Sequence record: PQ516281
From: Escherichia phage vB_EQ1
Length of the DNA: 64,000 nt
Reading direction: 5' to 3' (one strand)
Part shown: one piece after another, positions 17,101 to 17,691 of the stretch
Position numbering within the stretch: the stretch's first letter is position 1
Layout of the letters: each line of letters starts with the position of its first letter
Program-made: the position numbers and the translations under genes
The notes under the pieces: generated by a model
What the model saw: only the letters and a program-made list of their open reading frames with translations
Databases searched by the model: none
Told to the model about the DNA's origin: nothing

Positions 17101-17661
17101 GACGGTGTTAAGTCACATAGCCATAGTGCAAGTGCATCAAACACAGATTTGGGTACTAAGACCACTTCTAGTTTTGATTACGGTAGCAAAACGACTTCAA
17201 GCTTTGATTATGGTACTAAGACCAGTAATACCACTGGCAACCATAACCATACAGTGAGTGGTAATACTAGTTCCGCTGGTGCGCACCAACACGCGCGTTC
17301 AGGTCCTCAGGTACAAGGCGGCATACCCACTAGCATATTCTATGATGGATACAATAGTGCGGGTCCAAACGGCAACGCTAAATTCACTGCAACCGTGAGC
17401 GGTGCTACTGCATCGTCGAATATGGCCAAAACTTCTTCAGATGGTGCCCACACTCATAGTTGGTCAGGAACTACTAGCGCTACTGGTAACCATGCTCATA
17501 CTGTTGGTATTGGTGCTCATTCTCATACTGTTGGTATTGGTGCTCATTCTCATACTGTTGCAATTGGTTCCCATGGACATACAATAACTGTAAATAGTAC
17601 AGGTAATACAGAAAACACAGTTAAAAACGTTGCTTTTAACTATATCGTTCGTTTAGCATAA
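14128..17661 (+). CDS. 37: long tail fibre distal subunit gp37, receptor-recognising
   Basis: 1177 aa; N-terminus [33 protein letters not shown]; C-terminal HxH boxes (GNHNHT, GAHQHA, DGAHTHS, GNHAHT, (GAHSHT)x2, GSHGHT). Confidence 0.95.
17497..17577 (+). repeat. tandem direct repeat (27-bp unit, two exact copies plus one diverged) in gene 37 C-terminal region
   Basis: catactgttggtattggtgctcattct repeated at about 17497..17523 and 17524..17550, then diverged copy; encodes HTVGIGAHS repeats. Confidence 0.8.
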
Positions 17662-17691
17662 GGAGAGGGGCTTCGGCCCCTTCTAAATATG
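17661..17691 (+). promoter_or_regulatory. gene 38 translation initiation region with hairpin between SD and AUG
   Basis: AGGAG at 17661..17665, hairpin GAGGGGC-UUCG-GCCCCUU at about 17665..17682, AUG at 17689; linear spacing about 23 nt, brought into range by the hairpin. Confidence 0.6.

Follow-up and report, generated by a model that had tools for sequence, protein, structure and literature searches.

A conserved hairpin lies between the Shine-Dalgarno sequence and the start codon of gene 38 in T4-type phages

The split ribosome-binding site (RBS) of phage T4 gene 38 is reportedly a proposal of Gold and co-workers, and gene 25 is said to have been the subject of the mutational tests that the T4 review cites. 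In T4 gene 38 mRNA, 22 nt separate the Shine-Dalgarno sequence (SD) from the AUG, a distance that an intervening structure cuts to about 5 nt, and in gene 25 mRNA an intervening stem-loop shortens it from 27 to 11 nt (PMC3014915). For gene 25, that review describes direct reporter and DMS-probing evidence (PMC3014915; citing Nivinskas et al. 1999 and Malys & Nivinskas 2009). The gene 25 element, a split or ‘accommodated’ RBS at the gene 26-25 junction, follows the same principle of shortening an over-long SD-AUG distance, although it sits at a different locus and is unrelated in sequence; it is confined to close T-even relatives, like the gene 38 element here. Literature searches returned no primary report that gene 38 translation depends on the stem, only the review (PMC3014915). 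C(UUCG)G hairpins, which combine an extra-stable tetraloop with a C:G closing pair, have been described in T4 mRNA (Tuerk et al. 1988, as cited in PMC4371310). Here, we describe the gene 37/gene 38 junction in a 64,000-nt stretch of Escherichia phage vB_EQ1 (PQ516281; hereafter the window) and compare it with related junctions. The best explanation, and one we hold to be likely, is that translation of gene 38 in this T4-type phage starts from an initiation region of the known ‘split’ form; the split RBS as a feature is real, conserved and already known.

The window belongs to a T4-like phage (Tequatrovirus), and its segment 17400-18300 matches Escherichia phage MRostami-2023e at 100% identity and numerous Tequatrovirus and Mosigvirus genomes at 94-96%. 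The parts of the junction, and the late-promoter motif nearest upstream of gene 38, are as follows.

13422..13429, + strand: TATAAATA, a late promoter motif of T4 type that precedes gene 36 (pattern search)
14128..17661, + strand: gene 37, distal long tail fibre subunit, 1177 codons (open reading frame list)
17659-17661, + strand: gene 37 stop codon UAA (direct read)
17659-17665, + strand: gene 38 SD UAAGGAG, the strongest anti-SD duplex of the region, overlapping the gene 37 stop
17666-17681, + strand: C(UUCG)G hairpin (folds, pair probabilities, covariation counts)
17682-17688, + strand: A/U-rich single-stranded spacer UCUAAAU, 7 nt, without anti-SD complementarity (constrained fold)
17689..18240, + strand: gene 38, T4-type distal tail fibre assembly chaperone of the lambda Tfa family (open reading frame list)

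Read as RNA, the junction is GCA-UAAGGAG-AGGGGC-UUCG-GCCCCU-UCUAAAU-AUG. Gene 37 has Pfam Collar and Phage_fiber matches in its C-terminal part, corresponding to tail-collar and fibre-repeat domains, and is annotated as the long tail fiber distal subunit in homologous records. The gene 38 product, gp38, carries the Pfam Caudo_TAP domain, and the holin gene t comes next after gene 38. The gene 38 AUG (17689-17691), the same start as annotated in T4 and T4T, lies 27 nt from the gene 37 stop; a codon-by-codon read of that interval yielded no alternative in-frame start. AAGGAG at 17660-17665, together with U17659, forms a 7-nt complement of the 16S 3' end. The linear distance from G17665 to A17689 is 23 nt, of which the hairpin fills 16, with a stem of 6 bp (5' arm AGGGGC 17666-17671, loop UUCG 17672-17675, 3' arm GCCCCU 17676-17681) made of five G-C/C-G pairs and one A-U pair. 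The original prediction had placed an AGGAG at 17661 as the sole SD, about 23 nt from the AUG, and on direct reading these coordinates are exact.

An anti-SD scan, in which 8-mers were scored against the 16S 3' end by duplex energy, finds the best SD duplex at UAAGGAGA (17659-17666, -9.0 kcal/mol) and, between 17668 and the AUG, no duplex stronger than -2.1 kcal/mol, which bears out the claim that no closer SD exists; in the same scan, genes 35, 36, 37 and t have SDs at ordinary distances. The stable GC hairpin with a UUCG loop that had been proposed between SD and AUG is found as well: the five G-C/C-G pairs have a probability of at least 0.99 in 61-, 101- and 161-nt contexts and the A-U pair one of 0.64-0.66, and the isolated hairpin folds at about -11 to -12 kcal/mol (-11.2 to -11.9). 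The folding check suggested with the prediction, run on the 41-nt segment, gives -15.6 kcal/mol (z = -2.75 versus shuffles). A search of Rfam 15 gave no family at the gathering threshold and two chance-level matches (E = 5.5 and 9) whose scores fall far short of that threshold. With the SD and AUG region constrained to be unpaired, as on the 30S subunit, the stem begins at the base after the SD and the SD-AUG spacing becomes 7 nt versus 23 nt linear, so that in the model folding does restore a normal spacing, inside the functional range of about 5-10 nt, as foreseen.

At 23 nt from the AUG, past the limit of about 15 nt used here to define a split RBS, UAAGGAG would be too far away for direct use. 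In the mechanism we propose, the 30S subunit would pair with the SD, and the hairpin starting at the next base would be looped out of the mRNA path; this would leave 7 single-stranded nucleotides to the AUG, a normal spacing at which initiation could proceed. That ribosomes actually use this looped-out geometry is something we infer. The element illustrates that the SD-AUG distance is spatial, not a distance along the sequence, and that mRNA structure can aid initiation.

The resemblance to T4 gene 38 that had been noted agrees with the review (PMC3014915), and the downstream reading frame is indeed a T4-type gp38. Seventy-three phage records share the 46-nt junction without a difference, among them resequenced T4 isolates such as T4T (HM137666); OZ209023, OZ209057 and KP162262/3 carry it at 100% identity as well. 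The T4 reference NC_000866 differs: it reads GGGGCUUCGGCCC-UUCU, with one C fewer in the 3' arm (GCCC versus GCCCC in vB_EQ1), which gives a G·U pair in the stem and a 22-nt spacing, compared with 23 nt in vB_EQ1. The textbook value of 22 nt agrees with the reference record and may be a reference-specific polymorphism or a sequencing compression in the GC hairpin. The original prediction also held that the flanking sequence differs from that of T4. This is incorrect for the immediate flanks, given that T4 records match the junction at 98.6% identity over 141 nt, and applies to the body of gene 38 only, where gp38 is 67-68% identical to T4 gp38. As a separate observation, the region is mosaic: the junction (17620-17760) is 98.6-100% identical to T4 and JK36 and about 91% identical to JS09, whereas gp38 (17689-18240) is 96-97% identical to JS09/phiD1-type proteins. 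A T4-like junction joined to a JS09/phiD1-type gp38 implies a putative recombination point early in gene 38.

To compare T4-type split junctions we used 13 distinct junction sequences from 20 loci, covering Tequatrovirus, Mosigvirus, Gaprivervirus, Dhakavirus, IMG/VR and metagenomes. The junction diversity was drawn from 30 GenBank phage regions; a protein scan of IMG/VR yielded two loci, a hairpin-agnostic DNA pattern the same two, and a metagenome scan four. UAAGGAG is invariant in 13/13 junctions, although its GGAG is non-coding, and the stem directly adjoins the SD (0 nt) in all but one of the 13, TuIa, where 1 nt intervenes. Every stem cell (81/81, or 100%, over the 13 distinct junctions) is a standard pair, and one stem position is G-C in eight sequences, G·U in one (Aplg8) and A-U in four. 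The loops vary (UUCG, UUCU, UUAU, UUCA and GUUA), as do the 3' spacers (UCUAAAU, UCUGAAU, UCUGAAC, UUUGAAU, UUUUAUAAU, UUAAUU and others), which are 6-9 nt long. Linear spacing ranges over 22-27 nt and folded spacing over 6-10 nt. A paired fraction or covariation score as high as the observed one occurs in only 1/500 shuffles, controls with a slid register are 30-76% paired, and the G·U pairs of Aplg8 and of the T4 reference work on sense-strand RNA only. The depth of covariation is modest, being limited to one position in closely related sequences, but agrees with the structure. This natural series of G-C, G·U and A-U serves as a proxy for stem-dependent initiation.

One junction of this set stands apart. 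In Escherichia coli O157 typing phage 3 (KP869101, excerpt positions 352-376) the loop UUAU and a stem G together create an AUG within the hairpin; it is in frame, 8 nt from the SD and 18 nt upstream of the conserved AUG, and is the gene 38 start chosen by the depositors. Such a natural variant could distinguish a folded from an unfolded model of initiation.

To locate the junction in other lineages, the holin gene and distant gp38 homologues served as anchors. In six of them, a GC-rich stem-loop, mostly with a UUCG loop, follows 1-6 nt after the gene 37 stop, and the SD comes after the hairpin, 4-7 nt from the AUG, a normal distance that makes bridging unnecessary.

T2: UAA-A-[AGAGGGC UUCG GCCCUCU]-AAGGA-N6-AUG
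EcS1: UAA-GAG-[AAGGGGC UUCG GCCCCUU]-AAGGA-N5-AUG
Bp7: UAA-GAA-[AGGGCC UUCG GGCCCU]-GGAGG-N5-AUG
Ox2: [GGGGGC AAC GCCCCC]-UUU-GGAG-N7-AUG
CkP1: [AGGGCC UUCG GGCCCU]-U-GGAG-N5-AUG
Moon: [GGGGC UUCG GCCCC]-UCU-GAGGA-N4-AUG

In T2-type phages gene 38 encodes an unrelated adhesin, unlike the T4-type chaperone, and the RB49 junction is without such a hairpin. The position of the SD is complementary between the two groups. In split junctions it lies 5' of the hairpin in 13/13 (-7.9 to -9.3 kcal/mol) with none on the 3' side (at least +0.4), and in non-split junctions it lies 3' of the hairpin in 6/6 (-5.1 to -10.0 kcal/mol) with none on the 5' side (at least -2.2); across the 13 split and 6 non-split junctions, the SD is thus on one side or the other, never on both. 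This complementary placement, together with the constant folded spacing, is the best available evidence that T4-type phages use the upstream UAAGGAG as the functional SD and that the hairpin makes it usable, in support of the original prediction and of the published model. There is also counter-evidence: conservation of the hairpin is just as strong in junctions with a downstream SD, and this conservation alone is therefore no proof of bridging. When both groups are aligned, pairing is 98.6%, three pairs show double changes, one position occurs as G-C, A-U, C-G and G·U, and 0/500 shuffles reach the covariation score, with homology of the hairpins across the groups being taken from their position.

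The hairpin is also found outside T4-like phages. Yersinia phage vB_Yen_X1 (MN617773, excerpt 1542-1620) has a 50 kb genome and is not T4-like, but the final ~40 nt of its tail fibre gene have the same coding sequence as gene 37 (...NTVKNIA.NYIVRLA*). The same GGGGCUUCGGCCCC hairpin follows the fibre gene as UAA-UCAA-[AGGGGC UUCG GCCCCU]-UUAUUUUUUU; it is succeeded by a U-run and a sigma-70-like promoter (TTGACA-N17-TAATAT), and there is no SD and no gene 38. By its sequence the X1 hairpin reads as a plain terminator, and the fibre C-terminus and hairpin seem to have moved together into X1. Since the hairpin is kept where the SD lies downstream, and is a plain terminator in X1, it is probably older than the split arrangement. 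Its presence where no bridging is needed suggests another function, current or past, at the gene 37 end; in X1 that function would be termination. The homologous gene pair of lambda, stf-tfa, has a fibre C-terminus (11 residues, not shown here) followed by a Tfa-family chaperone, and is joined by the stop/start overlap GCAUAAUGG without a hairpin or an intergenic spacer. In our model the hairpin is probably inherited and marks the gene 37 3' end across T-even-type phages, and the split arrangement would be derived, the SD having come to lie 5' of the inherited hairpin. A more far-reaching version, to which we give slightly less than an even chance, is that the hairpin is an old, semi-autonomous element of the 3' end of distal tail-fibre genes in several Tevenvirinae genera, with a primary role at the RNA 3' end, in stability or termination, or as a module boundary, and that the split RBS is a secondary accommodation to it; a lambda-like stf-tfa cassette would then have been placed around a hairpin already present, and the SD would have arisen from the purine-rich sequence flanking the stem on its 5' side.

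These comparisons bear directly on a competing explanation that we consider a serious possibility, if somewhat improbable on balance: the hairpin may be mainly a 3'-end element of gene 37, acting as a barrier to 3' exonucleases or as a partial intrinsic terminator, which T4-type phages tolerate within an RBS. Such a role would keep gene 37 mRNA above the gene 38/t message and can coexist with bridging. It would account for the stem-loops after the gene 37 stop in T2, Ox2, Bp7, EcS1, CkP1 and Moon, which occur despite unrelated gene 37 C-termini and/or gene 38, for stem pairs that covary across split and non-split lineages, and for the X1 terminator. The remaining hairpins of the window point the same way, as does the occurrence of C(UUCG)G hairpins in T4 mRNA (PMC4371310). 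GC-rich tetraloop hairpins are enriched in it (30 strand-hits versus 5.4 +/- 3.4 in shuffles), and 15 were found, several with U-runs (for example 5075-5092, 22088-22105, 25956-25971, 41905-41926, 47729-47750, 49486-49505 and 60171-60190). UUCG is read on one strand in 11 of the 15, namely the + strand at 13397 and 17666 and the - strand for the other nine, and for the hairpins checked this is the strand of the neighbouring genes. Most of the other C(UUCG)G hairpins come after stop codons and have U-runs, as terminators or 3' hairpins do, whereas the one at 17666 lies within an initiation region. The hairpins at 47729-47750 and 60171-60190 (minus strand) were considered as further split RBSs and rejected, given that they come after stop codons and are followed by promoter-like sequence. 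Some depositors annotate a terminator under the match to the gene 38 hairpin, and JS09-type junctions have a terminator-like U5 after the stem.

In vB_EQ1 itself, however, the stem is GC-rich but the tail UCUAAAUA has 3 U in 8, below the criterion of at least 5 in 8, and a simple terminator scan that does call the hairpin between genes 35 and 36 does not call the one at 17666. We rejected intrinsic termination in vB_EQ1 on this basis and keep it as a possible ancestral or secondary role; a U-rich tract is present in the X1 homologue and nearly so in the JS09-type variants. Transcription argues in the same direction. The nearest late-promoter motif upstream of gene 38 is the TATAAATA at 13422, which precedes gene 36, and a pattern search found no further copy between 13430 and 18222, leaving gene 38 without a late promoter of its own; genes 36, 37 and 38 are therefore probably expressed as a single late transcript. 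Efficient termination at the hairpin would abolish gene 38 expression, which makes strong termination there unlikely. Literature searches for 3'-end mapping in T4 found none, and a 3'-end role leaves the invariant, stem-adjoining UAAGGAG and the folded spacing of 6-10 nt unexplained. Two observations concern the neighbouring boundaries. The next TATAAATA, at 18222-18229, lies within the last codons of gene 38 and directly upstream of the strong SD of gene t, suggesting that the holin gene has its own putative late promoter and that gene 38 has none. Between genes 35 and 36 (13397-13429), a second C(UUCG)G hairpin, GGGAGAC UUCG GUCUCCC, has a U-run and is directly followed by the TATAAATA at 13422, an arrangement that looks like a terminator-promoter boundary.

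A further alternative, which we regard as unlikely, is that gene 38 is translated mainly by termination-reinitiation: ribosomes ending gene 37 would be held by the SD and restart 27 nt downstream, and de novo 30S binding at gene 38 would be minor. The stop and the SD do overlap (UAAGGAG) in 13/13 T4-type junctions, gene 38 is probably cotranscribed with gene 37, and the homologous lambda genes are joined by a UAAUG overlap, a classic coupling arrangement without a hairpin. In vB_EQ1, however, stop and start are 27 nt apart with a hairpin of -11 kcal/mol between them, and no sequence feature requires upstream translation. Even with coupling, the AUG would have to be brought near by the hairpin, which makes coupling a variant of the bridging model and not an alternative to it.

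Looping-out of the hairpin with an open SD does not correspond to the fold predicted for the free RNA, and this raises the question of whether the structure could act as a brake, in which the pyrimidine run and a weak AUG helix keep synthesis of the chaperone gp38 low. Folding of the free RNA predicts a longer stem, in which 2-3 additional weak pairs and a bulge take in the GAG of the SD; the AUG is predicted to pair weakly with CAUA of the gene 37 stop region. In the ensemble, most of the pairing of the SD's 3' half is with the pyrimidine run 3' of the stem, an anti-SD-like run (CUUCU / CUUUUU), and this half is largely paired; unpaired probabilities are 0.22-0.26 for A17664 and G17665 and 0.08-0.24 for the AUG, and the unconstrained minimum-energy fold of every variant runs the stem into GAG/AG of the SD. 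Opening both SD and AUG costs about 3.7 kcal/mol (-15.6 versus -11.9), which is less than the gain from the SD:anti-SD duplex (-9 kcal/mol). The outer helix between the AUG and the gene 37 stop is predicted in most junction variants, but it is missing from the predicted folds of PhiZZ30, slur03, TuIa, O157tp3 and TH58, and we rejected it as a real feature. Partial occlusion of the SD is compatible with bridging and would only tune its efficiency, and we consider a braking function quite improbable. With part of the SD taken up by the stem and the AUG weakly paired in the predicted free-RNA fold, the ‘open SD plus hairpin’ form is, on these models, the ribosome-bound state and not the minimum-energy form. 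Finally, the GGAG of the gene 38 SD is presumably a possible RegB cleavage site, and cleavage there is unlikely for a late transcript.

The presence of the split RBS in vB_EQ1 adds nothing new in itself, and the comparative observations are a modest addition. They do provide a set of natural ‘mutants’ for testing the bridging model, as well as a path of compensatory change, and they suggest that annotation pipelines and RBS predictors should allow for structured spacers. A last feature of the region lies within gene 37, near its 3' end, where a 27-nt tandem repeat (17490-17582; 3.4 copies, 86-94% identity) codes for repeated G-x-H-x-H ‘His-box’ segments, which we take to be the iron-binding motifs of the gp37 needle and known recombination motifs.
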